A stretch of 64,000 nucleotides of DNA from Alphaproteobacteria bacterium (lineage in GTDB: Bacteria; Pseudomonadota; Alphaproteobacteria; SP197), in contig OZ219747.1 of assembly GCA_964291265.2 (NCBI GenBank), positions 3,808,001-3,872,000 of the forward strand. Reading direction: 5' to 3'. The translations under genes were made by a program, and so were the position numbers. Of the stretch, positions 8,430 to 20,949 are shown in pieces. The notes beneath the pieces are model-generated. The model ran no database searches. It saw nothing but the letters and a program-made list of their open reading frames with translations, and was not told the DNA's origin. Numbering within the stretch: the first letter of the stretch is position 1; the number at the start of each line of letters is the position of its first letter.

Positions 8430-9104
8430 ATGGCGGCATGGTACGGATCGAAGGCGACGACGGGTCTGAGCCAGGCGATCGTCGCGGCCATGCCGCCGCA
8501 TGACGTGTACATCGAGGCGTTCCTTGGGGGCGGCGCGATCATGAAGCGCAAGCCTCCGGCGCTACGCAGCATCGGCATTGACCTCAACCGCCGGGCGATC
8601 GACAGCTTCCGCTGTGACTATCCGGTGGAGCTTCACCAAGGCTGCGCCCTGCGTTTTCTCGAGACCTTCGCCTTCCAGGGCCGCGAGCTGGTCTACTGCG
8701 ACCCGCCTTACGTGCAGTCGACGCGCCGGTCGCAGCGCCGCTACCGCTTCGACTGCACGGACGACGACCATGTTGCGCTCCTTGACATCCTGACGTCGCT
8801 GCCCTGCCAGGTGATGATCTCCGGCTATCCCTCGCGGCTCTACGACACGCACCTCGCCGGCTGGCGCTCGGCCGAGGTCCAGGTCAACAACCAGGCCTGC
8901 GTTGTCACCGAGAAGCTGTGGTTCAACTTTGCACCGGGCCGGCCGCACTGGCACACGTGTGCGGGCAGGAACTCGATCGACCGCCAGCGCATCAAGCGCC
9001 TCGCAGAGAGCTGGGCGCGGCGCTACCGGACGATGCCCGAAGGCGAGCGGCTCGCCGTGCTGGCGGCTGTCATGGCGGTGGAGGCGTCGTCATGGCGAGC
9101 GTGA
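8430..9104 (+). CDS. Dam-like (D12 class) N6-adenine DNA methyltransferase
   Basis: WYGSK, YIEAFLGGGA (motif I), VYCDPPY (motif IV), VMISGY, TEKLWFNF. Confidence 0.9.
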   Translation: MAAWYGSKATTGLSQAIVAAMPPHDVYIEAFLGGGAIMKRKPPALRSIGIDLNRRAIDSFRCDYPVELHQGCALRFLETFAFQGRELVYCDPPYVQSTRRSQRRYRFDCTDDDHVALLDILTSLPCQVMISGYPSRLYDTHLAGWRSAEVQVNNQACVVTEKLWFNFAPGRPHWHTCAGRNSIDRQRIKRLAESWARRYRTMPEGERLAVLAAVMAVEASSWRA

Positions 9105-10570
9105 ACGGCACGTCTGTGCGCCAGGAGGCCGACGTCTTCCAGAAGCAGTTCCAGGATCTCCGCAAGCAAGGCAAGGTCAACCAGGAGTGCGAGGAGCTCT
9201 TCCGCGGCATGCTGATGCTGATAAAGCTGTTGCTGACCGTGCTCATGGAGAAGATCACACGTAAGACAAGCCGGAACTCCGGTCTGCCGCCATCGCAGAC
9301 TGACAAGGACGAGAGCGCGAGGCGCACCGGGAGCAACGGCAAGGGCCCGAAACCGAACCAGCAGACGGGCGACAACCTGCGCACGACCACCATCGAGGAG
9401 ACGATCACCGTCGATGCCTGCGACGCCTGCGGCGCCGACCTCCACGATGTCGACCCCGTCGACCGGGAGTGCCGCGTCCTCTACGACATCGTGTTCGAAG
9501 TCGTCGAGCGCCGCGTCGAAGCCGAGATCAAGGAATGCCCGAAGTGCCGGGCCCGGACCAAGGGCCGGTTCCCAGACAACATGCCGGGCCCCCTGCAGTA
9601 CGGCGTCAGCATCCAGGCCCTCGTCATCAACCTGCTGATCGCCCAGATGCTGTCCCTGCGTCGTGCCGTCTCGCTCGTGCACGCGATCTCCGGCATCAAG
9701 CTCTCCGAGGCGACCTGCCTCGGCTATGTCCGGCGCTTTCACGATGCCCTCGCATCATGGGAGGAGGCCGCCGTGGCCCATCTCCTGCAACAACCGGCCC
9801 TGCATGTCGACGAGACCGGCTTCCGGGTCGCCGGCAAGACCCAATGGCTCCATGTCGTCACCGACGGCACCCTGACGTGCAAGTTCCCGCACCCCAAGCG
9901 CGGCCGGGAGGCGATCGAAGAGATCGGCATCATCCCGCGCTACAAGGGCGTCCTGATCCACGACTGCTGGGCTGCCTACATGGGCTACGATCAATGCCGC
10001 CACCAACTGTGCGGCAGCCATCTCCTGCGCGAACTGACCTTCGTCGTCGAGTCCAACGGCTACCGCTGGGCGCGACTGATGAAAAGCCTGCTGCGCGAGG
10101 TCTCCCGCAGGGTCAACAAGAGCGCATCCAAGACCTTGAACGAGGCCGACCGCCGGGCCGTGCGCAAGCGCTACCGCACCATCCTCACCCAGGGCGCCAA
10201 GGAACTGCCCGACATCCCGCCACGGACGAAAGGAAAACGTGGACGCATCGCAAAGTCCGACGCGCACAACCTGCATGAACGTCTCGTGAAACACGAGAAG
10301 TCCGTCCTGCGCTTCATGAAGGACCCCAACGTCAGTTTCACCAACAATACCGGAGAGCAGAAGATCAGGATGACAAAGGTCAAGATCAAGGTGTCCGGAT
10401 GTTTCCGCACCATGCCCCACGCCAAAGCATGGTGCCGCGGCTCAAGCTACCTCACCACCATGGACGCACTCGGCTACAACCCTCACGTCGCCATCCACAT
10501 CGCCCTCGACGGAAAGGCCGTAGACATCCTCAACCAACACTACGGACAACCAGACCCTAACAAGGGGTGA
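9092..10570 (+). CDS. IS66-family transposase
   Basis: NSGLPPSQ, CDAC/CPKC Zn finger, LHVDETG, LIHDCW, HQLCGSHLLREL, FTNNTGEQKIR. Confidence 0.95.
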   Translation: MASVNGTSVRQEADVFQKQFQDLRKQGKVNQECEELFRGMLMLIKLLLTVLMEKITRKTSRNSGLPPSQTDKDESARRTGSNGKGPKPNQQTGDNLRTTTIEETITVDACDACGADLHDVDPVDRECRVLYDIVFEVVERRVEAEIKECPKCRARTKGRFPDNMPGPLQYGVSIQALVINLLIAQMLSLRRAVSLVHAISGIKLSEATCLGYVRRFHDALASWEEAAVAHLLQQPALHVDETGFRVAGKTQWLHVVTDGTLTCKFPHPKRGREAIEEIGIIPRYKGVLIHDCWAAYMGYDQCRHQLCGSHLLRELTFVVESNGYRWARLMKSLLREVSRRVNKSASKTLNEADRRAVRKRYRTILTQGAKELPDIPPRTKGKRGRIAKSDAHNLHERLVKHEKSVLRFMKDPNVSFTNNTGEQKIRMTKVKIKVSGCFRTMPHAKAWCRGSSYLTTMDALGYNPHVAIHIALDGKAVDILNQHYGQPDPNKG

Positions 10571-10578
10571 GTAGTTAC

Positions 10579-11142
10579 GATGAATCGAGCTTGGTGCTCC
10601 GCATTCCCGCTGCCAAGCTGGAGCTTGTTCCTGCCGATGCAACAGTCACGGTGCATTGCGGAGGTGAGCCCCTCACCGGTATCGAGGTTCTCGCGCTCTT
10701 TCCCAACAAGACCTGGGTCCGGGCGACGACCGACGAGACCGGCGCTGCGGCTCTGGACCTCTATACGACGAATTTGCCGATGACGGTCTATGCTGCCGGG
10801 TCGGGATATGCCGCCGGATTGGAACGAGCCTGGACCCCCCATCAGGGCGGCCTGCTGCTCGAACTCGAACCGCTCGAATCCGGTGGCGCCGCGATTTTCT
10901 CTCAGGACTCGGGATACCTCCCTGGCCTGCACGGACGGCTGAACCCGATACGCGATACGACCGACCGGACGTATCTGTATGCCGACAACATCGCCATCGA
11001 CGAGGGACGTCCGCAACCCGTGCCGTTTCGGCCCGGCAAACCGATACGGCTGACGGACGCCCGTGGCTCGGACTTGTCGGTCACCATCGTGGACATCCTC
11101 GGCCGGTCCGCCTTGATCGAATACGGACCGTTTGAACCGTGA
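10579..11142 (+). pseudogene. C-terminal part of the Schlafen/AlbA_2-HATPase gene (beta-rich domain)
   Basis: Removing the IS and one TSD copy restores the frame: ..EYRLVDES|SLVLRIPAAKLEL.. Confidence 0.85.
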
Positions 11143-11254
11143 CGGTCGTCAAGGCGTTCATCCGAGCCGGGAACCCGCGCTGCATGAGCCCGTACGAGAT
11201 GCTCCGCCGCGAGCGCGCAAGGTTCGTCCTGGGAGCGGGCAGAGCCGCGGCGTC

Positions 11255-14458
<3,204 letters not shown>

Positions 14459-14959
14459 TCGTCAAGTCCCTTGAGATACAGGTTCAGGCGCTCGCCGTCT
14501 GAAGCGGATCGCGCAGACCCGAAACCCATCCTTGCCCTGATGCGGAGGCCATGCATATCGACGTGACTGACGTTCGAGAGAATCGAGTGCGTCGCCACTG
14601 GGAAGGCTACAAGCATGGTACATCTCCCATCTCTCAACCCTTCGACTGCTACACCCCCATGACACCCGTGCCCAGGCCCTGCGCATCGCCAGGTTCTGCA
14701 CGGTCTGCAGCGTGCGCTGTGTCGATCGGGTCAGGGCTCTTCCTGCTCGCGCCGCTGCTCATGAAGACCGACGCGGCGCCGAGCACAAGCACTCCCGCGT
14801 CACCGAACCCGGTGTCGGCGGCGATTTAGAACGGCGGGATATTGGCGGAGAACCGCTCTTTTGAGCGCTGATCGTGTGAGTGGGTGATCACGACAGGAGA
14901 ACGTGCGGCATTGGACGAAGGTCCGCCCGGTCTTTGCTTTCTGCCTATTGTTGGATCCC

Positions 14960-15300
14960 ATTGGTCTTGCGTTGACGTTGACGTTGTGACGATGTCGTTT
15001 CGGTCGGCGTTTGTGGAACGTGATGTGGGAGGGGAGCTTCAGGCTTTTGCGCGGGGTCTTGTTCTGGCGTTCTCCGGCCTCGTCGTGGTTCGTCGGGCGG
15101 GACGATCTTGAGGCTGGAGAGCTGACGGTTTCTGTTGCGCTGGGCGAAGAGGCTGTGTGCGTTGCGGTTGCGGCGGCGCAGGGTGCGGCAGGCGTTGAGT
15201 GTTTTCGGGCGGATGCTGCGACCTGTGAGTCAGTCCGGCGGCGGATCGGGCGTCGCTGCGGCTCAGAGGCTGCGGCAGTCTCGTGATGCGGTGTCGTTTG
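14960..15300 (-). pseudogene. Decayed, internally deleted duplicate of the TOPRIM gene 3' half
   Basis: Aligns by eye to about 15740-15890 and 16135-16330; two Trp codons converted to TGA. Confidence 0.75.
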
Positions 15301-15401
15301 GACGGCCCGGGAGTTTCCCGGGGAGGCTGAGAGGCGCGTCGGGGTGAGACGTTCTCATTCCTGGATGGTAACGCGTGACCGCGTTCAAGGGTCTTGCGGG
15401 A

Positions 15402-15722
15402 TCACGTATCCCTTCCGTAGCCGCGTGGCGGTTCGATGTCCTCGAGGGCCTCGATGTCGGCATCGGCGACGCTCTGCAGGCGTTCTCCGTAAGGCGTGTC
15501 ACGGAGGCTTTCGGGGATGCTGTCGAGGTGGTCACGCCATTCGTCCTGCAGGGAGCGCAGTTCGGCCACGGCGTCGTTCCAGCGTTGCGGTCGCGAGCGC
15601 CGGTCACGGTGCTTTGGGGTGTGGACGGGAGGGATGCCGGCCTTGCGCCGTTCCCGGTATCGCCGCTGCTTTTCGGCGGGCGTGAGGGGCATGAGTGGTC
15701 TCCTTGTGACGGACGTGGTCAT
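15402..15722 (-). CDS. Small conserved hypothetical protein of mobile elements
   Basis: ATGA overlap with the TOPRIM gene stop; LTPAEKQRRYRER..RSRPQRWNDAVAEL..IEPPRGYGRD. Confidence 0.75.
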   Translation of the reverse strand: MTTSVTRRPLMPLTPAEKQRRYRERRKAGIPPVHTPKHRDRRSRPQRWNDAVAELRSLQDEWRDHLDSIPESLRDTPYGERLQSVADADIEALEDIEPPRGYGRDT

Positions 15723-16612
15723 GATCTCGCTTGTGGTTCTTTGGTCCTGGCGTTGACGACGTCGTTCCAGTCGGCGTTTTCCGGCGGTCTGCGTCTGTGG
15801 AACGAGACGTGGGAGGGGAGCTTCATCTTTTTGCGCAGGGTTTCGGCCTGTCGCTCTCCGGCCTCGTCGTGGTCCTGGGCGAGGACGATGGTCCTGACGT
15901 TGGGCAGGCTGCTTGCGGCGAGGCTGATCTGTTCGTGCTGTCTTCGCGAGGGTGCCCCGGCGGTGGAGAGGAAGGCGTGGCTGGGGGGACATTGGTCGAT
16001 CTGGGCCAGGCTGAGGGCGTCGACGGCGCTTTCGGTGATGACGAGGGCCTCGAGGTCCGCGGCGGTTCCGGCGCGGACGGCGAACAGGCTTCGGGTTCCA
16101 CCGGTGGCGAAGCGTTTCGGTCCGTCGGGGGGACCGATCTCGAAGCCGGTGAGCTTTCGCTTCCTGTTGCGATGGGCGAAGAGGACGCGTCCGTTGTGGT
16201 CGCGGCGGACCAGGGGGCGGCAGGTGTCGAGGGTCTCCGGGAGGATGCCGCGCCCGGTGAGCCAGTCCGGGGCCGCATCGGGCGTTGCCGCGGCCCAGAG
16301 GCTGCGGAAGTCGCGTGGCGCGGTGTCGGGTGCTGTGAAGCGGGTGCAGATGTCGGCGAAGGCCAGTCCGCGGTTGAGCATGAAGTCGATGACGGTTCCG
16401 TTGTCTTCATCGTTCTGGGTGTTGAAGTAGACCCAGTGTCCGTTGTTGAGGCACTTCGTGACGAGCTTCGGCAGGCCGGGTGCGCACAGGACGGGGTTGG
16501 CGCGTGTCGAGGCCTGTTCGTCGCGGACGTATCCCCAGTCGGCGGCGATGCGTTCGAACGGCATGCGCTTGACGGCGTCGAAGTCGACGCGGCGGGGTTT
16601 ATCGGGTTTCAC
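15719..16612 (-). CDS. DUF3991/TOPRIM-domain primase-like protein
   Basis: GTVIDF, WLTGRGI, LTGFEI, LVITESAVDALS, LAQDHDEAG (DxD), ADWNDVV; GTG start overlapping the istB stop. Confidence 0.8.
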   Translation of the reverse strand: MKPDKPRRVDFDAVKRMPFERIAADWGYVRDEQASTRANPVLCAPGLPKLVTKCLNNGHWVYFNTQNDEDNGTVIDFMLNRGLAFADICTRFTAPDTAPRDFRSLWAAATPDAAPDWLTGRGILPETLDTCRPLVRRDHNGRVLFAHRNRKRKLTGFEIGPPDGPKRFATGGTRSLFAVRAGTAADLEALVITESAVDALSLAQIDQCPPSHAFLSTAGAPSRRQHEQISLAASSLPNVRTIVLAQDHDEAGERQAETLRKKMKLPSHVSFHRRRPPENADWNDVVNARTKEPQARS

Positions 16613-17300
16613 GCCTGAGCCGCCAGGAGTCGCTGTCGATGGAGATGAGGGTTGCGTCGTGCATGAGCCGGTCGACGGTGCCGGCGATGCCGGAGGCGCT
16701 GGGGAAGACGCGGTCCCACTGGGCGAAGGCGAGGCTTGTCGTGACCATGGTCGAGCGGCGCTGATAGCGCCGCGAGACGATGGCGTAGAGGATGTCGGCA
16801 TGGTGGCTTTCGAGGGTCACGTAGCCGATTTCGTCGAGGATGAGCAGGCGGGGCCTGGCGAGGATCGCGAGGCGGCGGCGCAGCTCGCTGCGCGAGACGG
16901 TCTCGGCGAGTGCCTCGAGCAGTTCCGGCGCCTTCTCGAAGCGGACGGTGTGGCCGTGCAGCAGGGCCTGGTGCGCCACGTTGGCGGCGATCATGGTCTT
17001 TCCGGTGCCCTGCCCGCCGACGAGCACGGCGTTGTCCGCACGGTCGACGAAGCCGAGGCCGAGGAGCGCTTCGACATGAGCCCGGCTGATGTCGCGCGGC
17101 CATGTCCAGTCGAAGTCCGCCAGGGGCTTGAAGGCGGGCAGCCGCGCCGCGGCGCGGCGGCGCTCGTGGCTGCGGGCCCTGCGGGCCTGTTCCTCGCCGC
17201 TGACCACCTCCTCGATCCATGCGGTCCCGGCGACCTCGTCCCAGCGTTCGACGAGCCCGTGGAGGCCGAGCGCCCGGGCACGCTCCCTGAGCTCGCTCAT
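16599..17300 (-). CDS. istB: IS21-family helper ATPase IstB
   Basis: DFDWTWP, GGQGTGKT (Walker A), LLILDEIGY (Walker B), VDRLMHDA. Confidence 0.93.
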   Translation of the reverse strand: MSELRERARALGLHGLVERWDEVAGTAWIEEVVSGEEQARRARSHERRRAAARLPAFKPLADFDWTWPRDISRAHVEALLGLGFVDRADNAVLVGGQGTGKTMIAANVAHQALLHGHTVRFEKAPELLEALAETVSRSELRRRLAILARPRLLILDEIGYVTLESHHADILYAIVSRRYQRRSTMVTTSLAFAQWDRVFPSASGIAGTVDRLMHDATLISIDSDSWRLRRETR

Positions 17301-18790
17301 GTCTTGTTCCTGGCGCTGGCTTCGGGCCTGTCGTAGGCGTCGAGAGCGGTCCCCCGCGGCGTCGTGCCACGGCCGCCGCGGCCGTCGTCGGCGATGCTGA
17401 GGGGCGGCAGGCCCTGCTCCCGGCGGCGCTCCTCGATGATGACGCGCACGGTTTCGGGGTGGCACGAGCCGCGCTCCAGCGCCGTGGCGACAGCCCGGTC
17501 GAGAGCGTCGGCGCCGTGCGCGTTGAGAAGCGTCTCCAGCATCCGGGCGCAGGAGGCCACGTTGCGCCCGTTGGTCCCGGCGCGCGCCAGCATCTCCTCG
17601 GCCCGCGGCACGGTGCGCAGGACCCGGTCGCGGACGCTCATGGAGCGGGCCCGCCGCTTGCCCGCGGCGATCGCCCTGGCATGCTCCGGATCGGTGACGG
17701 CCTGCTTCCTGTCGTAGGAGCGTCGGTGGCGCGCGACCTCGTCGGCGCCGTCGAGGATGCGAACCTCGTCGCGGTCGGCGACCAGCGTCAGCAGGGCCTT
17801 GGAGAAGCTACCCGGAACGCTGTAGTCGTTGGTGTCGAAGCGGGCGTGGCAGGTCTTGTCGATGCGCACCGGGCGGATCTCGTGATGCGGGAAGGGATCG
17901 GCGGGAAGGACGATCAGGTGCTCCCTCTCCCGGGCGAAGGCGTCCCGCACCAGGAGACTGTCGTCGTCCGGCCAGGGCCGCTCCGCGGCGGCGCCGAAGC
18001 ACCACTCCCGAACCGCGGCGTTGAGCTCGCCGAGCGGGACCGTGATGTCGCGCCCGGCGAAGAACCCGGTGCGCGCGAAGCGCACACGGCGTTCCACGCG
18101 GCCCTTCTCCTGCGGGCTCCTGGGCCAGGCGGCGCTCGGTTCGAAGGCATAGTGGGCCGCGAGGCCGAGCAGCATCGGATGATAGGTGACCGCCTTGCCG
18201 CGGCGCGTCACCACGGCACTCTTCAGGTTGTCGTACAGAAGCCTCCGCGGCACACCCCCGAATGCCGCGAAAGCCTCGACATGGCCTTGCAGGAAGCTGG
18301 CCATCCGCGCGTCGTGGAACAGGCTCAGGACAGTCTGGCGCGAGTAGCTGAGGGTGACGAGAAGCCCCATGAGCCTGCGCTCCGCCCGGCCGATGCGGAC
18401 CTTCCCGAACTCGGCCCAGTCAACCTGCGCCTGCTCGCCCGGAAGGAAGCTCAGCCGCAGCGACGGCTCGGGCCTCTTCACCGGCCTCAGCCCGAGGCGG
18501 CGCAGGTCGTGACGGAAGTGATCCTCGCCGCCGCGGTAGCCCAGAGCCACGACCTGTCGCCAGAGCGTGCTGGCCGGAAGGTCCGGCGACGCCTCAAGAC
18601 GCTCCCCGAGGAAGGCAACGAAGGGGTCGATGAGCTTGGCCCGCGGCCGCCGCTCCTGCCCCGACGCCTTGAGCGCCCGCGTCACCGTGCCGTGGTGCAC
18701 GCCGAGATGCCGGGCAATCGTCCCCACAGCCCAGCCCTCGGCCCGCGACAGCCGCACGATCGTCGCCCGCGTGTCCTCGTCGATCGCCAT
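17297..18790 (-). CDS. istA: IS21-family transposase IstA
   Basis: N-terminal HTH, PGEQAQVDW, LLYDNLKSAV, KGRVERRVR (DDE), FDTNDYSVP. Confidence 0.95.
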   Translation of the reverse strand: MAIDEDTRATIVRLSRAEGWAVGTIARHLGVHHGTVTRALKASGQERRPRAKLIDPFVAFLGERLEASPDLPASTLWRQVVALGYRGGEDHFRHDLRRLGLRPVKRPEPSLRLSFLPGEQAQVDWAEFGKVRIGRAERRLMGLLVTLSYSRQTVLSLFHDARMASFLQGHVEAFAAFGGVPRRLLYDNLKSAVVTRRGKAVTYHPMLLGLAAHYAFEPSAAWPRSPQEKGRVERRVRFARTGFFAGRDITVPLGELNAAVREWCFGAAAERPWPDDDSLLVRDAFAREREHLIVLPADPFPHHEIRPVRIDKTCHARFDTNDYSVPGSFSKALLTLVADRDEVRILDGADEVARHRRSYDRKQAVTDPEHARAIAAGKRRARSMSVRDRVLRTVPRAEEMLARAGTNGRNVASCARMLETLLNAHGADALDRAVATALERGSCHPETVRVIIEERRREQGLPPLSIADDGRGGRGTTPRGTALDAYDRPEASARNKT

Positions 18791-18822
18791 GAACTCCCTC
18801 CCTCTGGTTCCTCAACGCCGCA

Positions 18823-19299
18823 TCACGGGTCCCTCAGCACCACATGCGTCACGACCCGTCCGCAACGGGCGCACCGAAGCGGCGATTCGCGTCGCTCTTG
18901 CGCCTTCACAACCGCAGGTAGGGAGGTCGGCAGCAGTCGGGAAGGGTGGTCCGTAACGATTTCTTCGGAACCGGCGTCTCCAGACACCGCCGGAACGTCG
19001 CCAAGCAGCACCACAGCAGACGTCTGCGTGCCCATGATCTCGGCAAGCATCGCCGCCCTGGCCTTCAACGCACGCGCCTCCTCCGCCTTGCGGAGCCGGT
19101 AACGCCGCTGGCGGTGACGGCCCGTCTCACGGCCCCTCAGCGTGCTCTGGTAGCGACGACGCGACGCGCGGCGCCGCTCGATCCGGGACCGCTCCCTGCA
19201 CTCATCGGAGCAATACACATGCCCCCGGTCACACGACCGGCAGAGAACAACCTGCCGCTGACACCGCTTGCAGTTGAACAGTCGTCCCGTCGTGCACAC
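18823..19299 (-). CDS. Cys-rich Zn-finger/Arg-rich accessory protein upstream of istA
   Basis: RLFNCKRC..LCRSCDRGHVYCSDEC..RRYQ..RQRRYR..CARCG; start codon uncertain. Confidence 0.7.
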   Translation of the reverse strand: MCTTGRLFNCKRCQRQVVLCRSCDRGHVYCSDECRERSRIERRRASRRRYQSTLRGRETGRHRQRRYRLRKAEEARALKARAAMLAEIMGTQTSAVVLLGDVPAVSGDAGSEEIVTDHPSRLLPTSLPAVVKAQERRESPLRCARCGRVVTHVVLRDP

Positions 19300-19680
19300 G
19301 ATCCGTCTCGAGAGCGGGGGTGGACCCGGACGCAAAATGGCTCGACAATACACGGGAGTTCGGTCCCCCGTGACCGGCTCGTCCGGGTGCTGCGCCGGGG
19401 GGCGTCGGTAAAACTCTGCCCGGCGCCGCATCGCTCTTTCTTTCGATGCCGATCTAGCATCCACCCGGGGCGGCGGCAAAAACGCCGCCCCGGGACCGGA
19501 CAACGCGACCCAGACCACAGGGAAAACAGACGATCCCGCGAGTGCCTCGGAACCGAAACCCTCCCGGCAACCGTCACCAAGACCGAAGCAGAGGCCGACG
19601 GAACAATCCGAACCGGACCAAAACGACAATAGGAAAACGGGCGGCGCTCGGGGAGACAATCAGCCGAACACTCAAACCAC

Positions 19681-19719
19681 GACAACAGGACGTGACAATA
19701 GGACCTGACAACAGGGAAG
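19681..19719 (+). repeat. Three tandem 13-bp repeats (GACAAYAGGAC..) near the IS21 left end
   Basis: gacaacaggacgt gacaataggacct gacaacagggaag; further partial copy at 19625 and an inverted copy (cctattgt) at 14944. Confidence 0.7.
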
Positions 19720-19878
19720 AAACACGACCCTGACAAAGCGCGGCAAATCGCCGAAATCCCGCCGTTCTATGCAGCCATCAACACCCCGGCGCCACCCCCT
19801 GCCAGGTGAAGGTGGGTGCCCGTGCCGGTCATGGAAGCGCTTAGGGAGAATGCGCCGACGACTTGACCGGGCTCCGGG

Positions 19879-20949
19879 TCAGCCGCACTGGGCCCTGTGG
19901 CGCAGCAGATGGTCGGCAAGAACACAGGCCATCATCGCCTCGCCGACCGGGACGGCCCGGATGCCGACACACGGGTCGTGGCGGCCGGTGACCCGGACGG
20001 TGGTGTCATTCCCCTCCTTCGTGACGGTACGCCGCTCGTGAAAAATCGAACTCGTCGGCTTGACGGCGAAGCGCACGATCAGCTCCTCGCCGGTGGCAAT
20101 GCCTCCGAGAATGCCCCCGGTTCGGTTTGACAGGAACTGCGGGCCGTTCTCATTTGAGCGCATCTCGTCGGCTGCCGTCGTTCCCGGCATGGAGGCCAGG
20201 GCGAATCCATCTCCGATCTCGACACCCTTGACAGCGTTGATGGACATCATGGCCGCGGCCAGGTCGCCGTCGAGCTTGCCATAGACCGGACTTCCCAGGC
20301 CTGCCGGAACGCCAGAGGCACGAATCTCGACAATGGCCCCTGCCGACGAACCCTCCTTGCGGATCCCGTCGATGTGGTCGGCCCAGCGTGACGCCGTGGT
20401 GCTGTCGGGGCACCAGAAGGGATTGCGGCCGGTTTCCTCCCAATCCCAGGCCGACCTGTCAATGGCAAGAGGACCAATCTGGACCACCGCTCCCCGGATG
20501 ACGACCGCCTCCCCCAGCACCTTGCGGGCGACGGCGCCGGCAGCCACGCGCATCGCTGTCTCCCGGGCACTCGCCCTGCCGCTGCCTCGCCAGTCGCGGA
20601 TGCCATACTTCGCGTCATAGGTGTAGTCGGCATGGCCCGGGCGCCAGATCATGGAGATGTCGCCGTAATCGCGGGAACGCTGATCGACGTTCTCCACTGT
20701 CATGGCAAGGGGAGTGCCGGTGGTCATGCCCTCGAACCAGCCCGAGACGATCGACACCCGGTCCGGTTCGCGCCGCTGGGTCGTGTACCGCGATGTTCCG
20801 GGCCGACGGCGATCCATCCAGTGCTGGATCTCGTCCTCGCCGATGGGGATCCGTGGTGGCACGCCATCCACCACGCAACCGATGCGGGGGCCGTGACTTT
20901 CGCCCCAGGTGGTCACCCGGAAGACCTGCCCGAAGCTGTTCGACGCCAT
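19879..20949 (-). CDS. aroC: Chorismate synthase
   Basis: [36 protein letters not shown]. Confidence 0.97.

Follow-up and report, generated by a model that had tools for sequence, protein, structure and literature searches.

A predicted primase gene after istB in an IS21-family element, and a possible replication-priming slot shared with its relatives

Why does this element carry a primase-like gene?

Why should an insertion sequence (IS) whose canonical form has istA and istB carry, between its ends, a gene for what looks like a primase? The question is raised by a 4,971-bp IS21-family element at positions 14813–19783 of the 64,000-nucleotide stretch of an Alphaproteobacteria bacterium genome analysed here (contig OZ219747.1, positions 3,808,001 to 3,872,000; hereafter the window, whose numbering we use throughout). 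Our answer, to which we would give a probability of roughly 55%, is that the predicted primase encoded next to istB primes synthesis on the element's own transposition intermediate, and that the place it occupies is a swappable replication-priming slot. That the protein would prime copy-out transposition in particular is, from the sequences, plausible. The element likely supplies its own priming step, we think, because the primase gene sits where relatives carry a small protein with a look-alike of the tail of SSB, the protein that binds single-stranded DNA; and since one slot is filled in these two ways in two transposon families, priming would be the job that the occupants share.

Does the gene belong to the element?

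Here the answer is clearly yes. The sequence-only reading of the window had set the right end beyond the primase-like gene and not directly after istB, and in all eight relatives that we measured the right end indeed lies 156–688 bp past the primase stop, which places the gene inside the element. Among 41 related genomes, G004, G009 and G016 have primases 60–64% identical to this one directly after istB, the unit being 4,045 bp in G004 and 4,466 bp in G009, with three copies, related ends and target duplications in each of these two. A scan of species genomes, whose records bear titles such as Alphaproteobacteria and Paracoccaceae, yielded 52 primase loci, of which 36 have zinc finger, istA, istB and primase in order, two are nested copies, four are interrupted with istB still upstream and ten are fragments, including four short pieces bounded by element ends. 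Where the match begins within the first ten primase residues, istB is directly upstream at every locus (42 of 42), and 11 genomes, frameshifted in two cases, have the four-gene order inside inverted repeats, so that istAB elements carrying a TOPRIM gene, as anticipated from the window alone, do exist. The five-gene unit then described survives in part: zinc finger, istA, istB and primase are conserved, while a 106-amino-acid open reading frame (ORF) is optional and rare elsewhere.

The primase carriers form one IstA clade, with a support of 0.94 among 95 sequences and of 1.00 in a second set. The 52 loci were mostly found via the primase, and searches starting from IstA were therefore added in 33 family genomes and five further ones; the whole-length clade matches were all at primase-bearing loci, the remainder being partial pieces (such as a 195-amino-acid fragment in G012 and, in G009, a copy joined to a different element) and, from beyond the clade, a single match of 47%. 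Within the primase clade, three IstA clusters (P0116–P0118) come without visible gene context, and a class-wide IstB search brought up two other genomes among 400, both distant.

Four short derivatives of about 450–630 bp (L080, L081, L083 and L084) consist of both ends and a 3' part of the primase gene only, L081 with an exact 5-bp duplication.

Is the protein a primase?

On the strength of its modelled fold, the 297-amino-acid product (15719–16612, minus strand) is a predicted DnaG/T7-type primase, with a zinc-binding-like fold that lacks conserved zinc ligands followed by a polymerase domain. Pfam places Toprim_2 above its cut-off and DUF3991 below it (20.7 versus 24.5 bits), PHROGs returns primases, and the AlphaFold model has a mean confidence (pLDDT) of 91.7. 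Residues 94–290 align with the T7 primase fragment 1nui_B (Z 15.6, root-mean-square deviation (rmsd) 3.8, 179 aligned) and the DnaG core 2au3_A (Z 13.2), the T7 gp4 and DnaG primase cores scoring well above topoisomerases, and Foldseek matches the polymerase domain at E 2e-7. When residues 1–96 were folded alone, each of the top four matches was the N-terminal zinc-binding region of a primase (Z 6.2 for the best, which is in the tool's middling range, with rmsd 3.7 and 84 aligned; also Z 5.6), and Foldseek gave no match for this part. Across 63 homologues E194, D247 and D249 never vary, D281 and D284 hardly do, and the window copy keeps all six acidic residues, D198 included.

Median ratios of nonsynonymous to synonymous substitution (dN/dS) of 0.43 for the primase gene, 0.36 for istA and 0.35 for istB (45 pairs, 10 representatives) indicate that the primase is under purifying selection like its two partners. 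The primase, IstA and IstB trees broadly agree, with many IstA and IstB nodes weakly supported. A predicted complex of IstB with the primase scored 0.00, which is evidence neither way. Recoding at TGA stops, flagged in relatives' primase matches, was considered and rejected, the ORFs being open to their normal end.

What fills the same place in other relatives?

IstA relatives of 40–50% identity were found in 55 plasmid records and in metagenomes, where the best 80 of 583 matches were examined, and our survey of the slot rests on the 71 loci with a complete istB (66 metagenome, 5 plasmid). Directly after istB, 33 of these 71 have an ORF ending in PF, as against 37 of all 5,215 ORFs in the same loci (the 33 included), and this ORF usually overlaps istB by ATGA. 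The slot ORF matches the family profile at 49 loci, 38 of which were used to build it. The protein is small (63–94 amino acids), helical as predicted by eye, and has an acidic tail such as FDDDIPF; in SSB, DDDIPF forms the tail to which DnaG and further replication proteins bind (PMC3632105). In two plasmid members the small gene lies inside the ends, and 5-bp duplications are present. The profile finds 1,796 clusters at 50% identity, with 78 of the best 150 ending in PF and 109 in F; the protein has no Pfam or NCBIfam name, and its atlas matches are unnamed clusters below 0.9. An enlarged IS21 subfamily had been proposed from the window, and the idea holds in a modified form: the zinc finger and an accessory slot define the subfamily, and most members are without the primase.

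The slot has further unnamed occupants, at L108:3442-3867, L136:3376-3735, L141:3082-3474, L144:2753-3139, L125:3634-3915, L150:3653-3946 and L155:3408-3647. Those of L125 and L144 have weak matches to an OB-fold (E 0.008) and to RepB_primase_C (E 0.025), respectively. An impression that the occupants of L136, L141 and L144 are DnaD-like and that of L108 initiator-like gained no family support beyond the weak match of L144.

Does a second transposon family do the same?

A different kind of transposon suggests that it does. In G005 a 4.0-kb TG...CA element with 15 matches carries a cysteine-rich ORF, an rve/Mu-like transposase, an ExeA-like ATPase and a DUF3991/TOPRIM gene, and with its relatives (L028–L030 in G005, L031 in G013, L032 in G002 and L033 in G010) it puts the primase after the ATPase in four related genomes. 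The genome of the window (G000; 4.83 Mb, two contigs) has a 5.16-kb element of this type, L174 (G000:C2:47062-52222), plus four more near-whole copies, in the order cysteine-rich ORF, DDE transposase, ExeA-like ATPase, AAA_25 helicase-like ATPase and DUF3991/TOPRIM primase. These elements score best to the IS481 and TIGR03015 models, and their primases form a clade separate from the IS21 primases. In all three plasmid relatives that we read, a small PF-ending protein of 65–74 amino acids comes right after the ATPase (L238:5158-5355, L239:5100-5324 and L240:5089-5286), and the one compared is weakly similar to the IS21 slot protein (E 6e-5). Judged from these sequences, the second transposon type shows the same slot swap, with a primase that was separately acquired. 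Whether two unrelated ATPase-assisted transposon families thus have a dedicated, swappable replication slot, holding either an SSB-tail mimic that would recruit the host primosome or a primase of their own, sometimes with a helicase, is a broader proposal, which we put forward tentatively and at a little under even odds.

One L174-type copy (C2:2281092) is interrupted by the IS21 element studied here. L035:5847-6698 encodes an in-frame fusion of the N-terminal domain of the primase with the C-terminal part of an ExeA-like ATPase, apparently through a deletion between the two element types.

How might the priming work?

IS21 is proposed to use a copy-out/paste-in route (PMC11208146) and is counted among the circle-forming families (bioRxiv 10.1101/2023.06.07.543989), and replication is what converts the figure-eight into a circle during copy-out (PMC7780238). 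On that route, IstA would join one strand of the two element ends; synthesis from the freed 3' end would displace a single-stranded circle; the element's primase would lay down an RNA primer for the second strand; and IstA with IstB would insert the circle. In the primase-less relatives, the SSB-like tail of the slot protein might instead recruit the host's priming and restart proteins. IS911 reportedly needs DnaG for its step from figure-eight to circle.

What else could explain the gene?

A number of observations weigh against priming, and they are best considered beside the explanations that they favour. The copy-out route for IS21 is itself only a proposal (PMC11208146). No primase was seen at any of the 80 distant metagenome loci, many of whose contigs end soon after istB (where istB is complete, at 66 loci, at least 850 bp follow it in no more than 20), and about 22 of the 71 distant loci hold other ORFs or none in the slot. 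Two primase-less members, in Paraburkholderia and Methylotuvimicrobium, keep 5-bp target duplications, so the primase is dispensable for the movement of the subfamily. The protein is also without a helicase-binding domain, no cysteine is conserved in its N-terminal domain, and D198 is Asn in five of ten clade representatives and in 19 of the 41 close homologues with a readable motif, which disfavours a uniform primase activity in the clade. This Asn, the unconserved zinc ligands and the small, non-enzymatic nature of the protein that otherwise occupies the slot would all suit a primase-shaped but non-catalytic accessory, one that steers or restrains the intermediate by binding replication proteins of the host or DNA that is single-stranded or branched; we think this unlikely, given the invariant and nearly invariant acidic residues among the homologues and the complete set of six in the window copy.

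Where the gene came from is a related matter. Its closest relatives with a known context, from two genomes outside the class, adjoin plasmid rep genes, and these proteins, at about 33% identity, group with the clade at 99.9 in the SH-aLRT test, along with many context-less proteins, which makes a plasmid origin likely as far as sequences can tell. The same plasmid-replication neighbourhood also fits captured cargo: the element could be a transporter IS whose plasmid-derived primase is kept by hitchhiking or host benefit and has nothing to do with transposition. Distant homologues occur in 449 plasmid records, the confinement of the carriers to one clade is explained by a single capture, and the optional 106-amino-acid ORF has been acquired as well. 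We rate cargo as slightly less probable than a non-catalytic accessory. Against it, the primase is selected as strongly as istAB are, over a range in which IstA identity falls to 49%, its translational coupling to istB is kept, the second transposon type captured a different primase at the equivalent position, and both types otherwise hold an SSB-tail-like protein there. The least probable account, in our opinion, has the primase allowing circles that have been excised to persist, or to replicate as mini-replicons, or priming element DNA after conjugative transfer into a new host. It would agree with the abundance of homologues on conjugative plasmids (297 of the 449 records), with the near-identical architecture in several alphaproteobacterial lineages and with the helicase-like ATPase that the second transposon type can add; the element, however, is without a helicase, initiator, relaxase or recognised origin, and all copies seen are integrated. 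Replication of a circular intermediate had been one of the suggestions of the sequence-only reading, and nothing supports an autonomous replication of circles.

How does the element compare with known systems, and why does it matter?

With IS21 and IS5376 the element shares the IstA DDE transposase, the IstB AAA+ ATPase, TG...CA inverted repeats and 5-bp duplications, as described in PMC10122671 and PMC11208146, in which the word primase does not occur; what sets the present family apart is its size of 4.0–5.3 kb, the conserved zinc-finger gene that precedes istA and the primase gene that follows istB. The second-type elements resemble Tn6049-like elements in their core of DDE transposase and GspA/ExeA-like ATPase, a likeness drawn by description only from PMC2864759. 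They have the same layout as the IS21 element, in that a cysteine-rich ORF is followed by the transposase, the ATPase and finally either a primase or a small protein ending in PF, whereas the IS21 element differs from the Tn6049-like group in its transposase and ATPase families (IstA and IstB) and its separate primase clade. The PrimPol of the IS excision enhancer (IEE) is likewise an enzyme that primes, and it too works on intermediates of copy-out ISs, but according to bioRxiv 10.1101/2023.06.07.543989 it is an AEP-type primase-polymerase with a helicase domain that promotes abortive excision, whereas the present protein is of the TOPRIM type and is encoded inside the IS. Casposons and pipolins are also mobile elements with a DNA-synthesis enzyme of their own, which is a family B DNA polymerase; no such ORF lies between the ends of the window element, which has a primase only and would need the host's polymerase and helicase. 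Plasmid DUF3991/TOPRIM proteins have the same domains, although here the gene is coupled to istB within a multi-copy chromosomal IS.

An IS21 element with a primase or an SSB-tail protein was not found in the literature searched; ISfinder, TnPedia and subscription journals lay outside that search and may list such elements. How copy-out intermediates are handed over to replication is poorly known, and an IS21 element with a primase, together with its SSB-tail sisters, offers a direct genetic handle on this step. The small slot proteins, a large family of the 1,796 clusters mentioned above, are present in cultured hosts. If priming is indeed what the slot provides, both transposon families would govern replication during their own transposition, a step that is normally credited to the host alone.

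What is the element made of?

By its transposase, ATPase, inverted repeats and target duplications the window element is a member of IS21, and it is its gene content, five ORFs (four of them conserved) as against the canonical istA and istB, that makes it a variant. IstA (497 amino acids; 17297–18790) scores 222.8 bits against NF033546 (cut-off 160) and matches the IstA of IS5376 at E 4e-30, with which its catalytic D124, D187 and E233 align. IstB (233 amino acids; 16599–17300), an AAA+ ATPase with intact Walker A and B motifs, scores 171.8 bits against PF01695 (IstB_IS21), above the cut-off, and 192.2 bits against NF038214, just below the cut-off of 200. The five ORFs are all on the minus strand, and the last four overlap as had been noted from the sequence: istA and istB by 4 nt, istB and the primase gene by 14 nt, and the latter and the small ORF by 4 nt.

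The 158-amino-acid, cysteine-rich, zinc-finger-like ORF (18823–19299; GTG start) has its stop 32 nt upstream of istA. It is conserved in that place throughout the subfamily (67 of 69 metagenome loci with enough flank), and its product, for which Pfam gives a weak zf-MYND match only, is likely a DNA-binding regulator or adaptor. The basic, helical product of the 106-amino-acid ORF (15402–15722) matches no Pfam or NCBIfam family above cut-off and found no match in a plasmid search; the ORF is not present in most relatives, being found outside this genome in one genome only among the 52 species-scan loci, and a nonsense codon interrupts it in 3 of 32 copies, and we regard it as an optional passenger. 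Between the small ORF and the right end a part of the primase gene is duplicated (14984–15296, minus strand; 80–84% identity, or 80–88% over the direct repeats D1, D2 and D14), in a decayed form that has undergone internal deletion and has stops in its translation.

The element begins with TG at 14813 and finishes with CA at 19783, the TG...CA inverted repeats by which the IS21 family is recognised. Its terminal inverted repeats, right (IRR; 14813–14861) and left (IRL; 19735–19783), are both annotated on the minus strand. The end arms at 14811–14861 and 19735–19785 (51 nt, 71% complementary) constitute the longest inverted repeat within 14000–20600, and the imperfect repeats of about 50 bp reported earlier are thus borne out. 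So is the near-perfect target duplication: CCCGG stands beside the right end at 14808–14812 and again at 19785–19789, with a single additional C at 19784. The empty site with one CCCGG that had been predicted turned up in contigs of two of three public runs, all from one study; in X2 and X3 the flanks 14807 and 19785 are joined, with five letters fitting both sides, and in X1 the site is filled. A simple offset scan for transposase-binding sites of the L1/L2 and R1/R2 type within the ends gave at most 10 of 20 matches, and no sigma-70 promoter or terminator consensus was found within 14700–19900.

A different repeated element, L176 (G000:C2:3032693-3037794; also C2:2594474-2599574), contains a 77% identical copy of the 106-amino-acid ORF. 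The first ORF of L176 is presumably IS66-like.

How active is the element in this genome?

This is an active IS21-family element that has spread recently. A search for further copies with the same ends had been suggested, and the genome contains 47 matches to the left end and 42 to the right, 33 of which pair as whole elements, the window copy among them; 28 of these 33 have exact target duplications (5 bp in 22, 6 bp in four and 7 bp in two) and five have none that is exact. Among the 32 copies that were aligned, one of 7.4 kb being left out, every one has an intact istA, istB and zinc finger, while 31 have an intact primase and 29 an intact small ORF. The usual copy measures 5.32 kb, and 30 of the 32 have near the right end some 370 bp, a second partial copy of the small ORF, that the window copy and one other are without. 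Element DNA adds up to about 198 kb, and because it covers about 4.1% of the genome we see the element as a main driver of rearrangement here. No abutting ends, as expected of circle or tandem junctions, are present in the assembly, and no end-to-end joint is listed in the Logan contigs of X1–X3; as such contigs drop rare forms, the missing circle junctions are not evidence of absence.

A 7,424-bp copy at G000:C2:1235120-1242543, about 2.1 kb over the usual size, contains an insertion. The element has also inserted into its own copies, at G000:C2:295923-308929, 4058043-4075257, 4144635-4152391 and 4237410-4258495, and the outer ends of the last cluster have one common target duplication across 21 kb.

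What lies around the element?

The element is flanked by a type I restriction subunit R gene (11132–14458) and by chorismate synthase. Just upstream of the restriction gene there is an IS66-family transposase (8918–10570). In the left flank, a short repeat at 14610–14742 recurs at C2:3039669-3039800 with 86% identity and also at loose ends in the runs.

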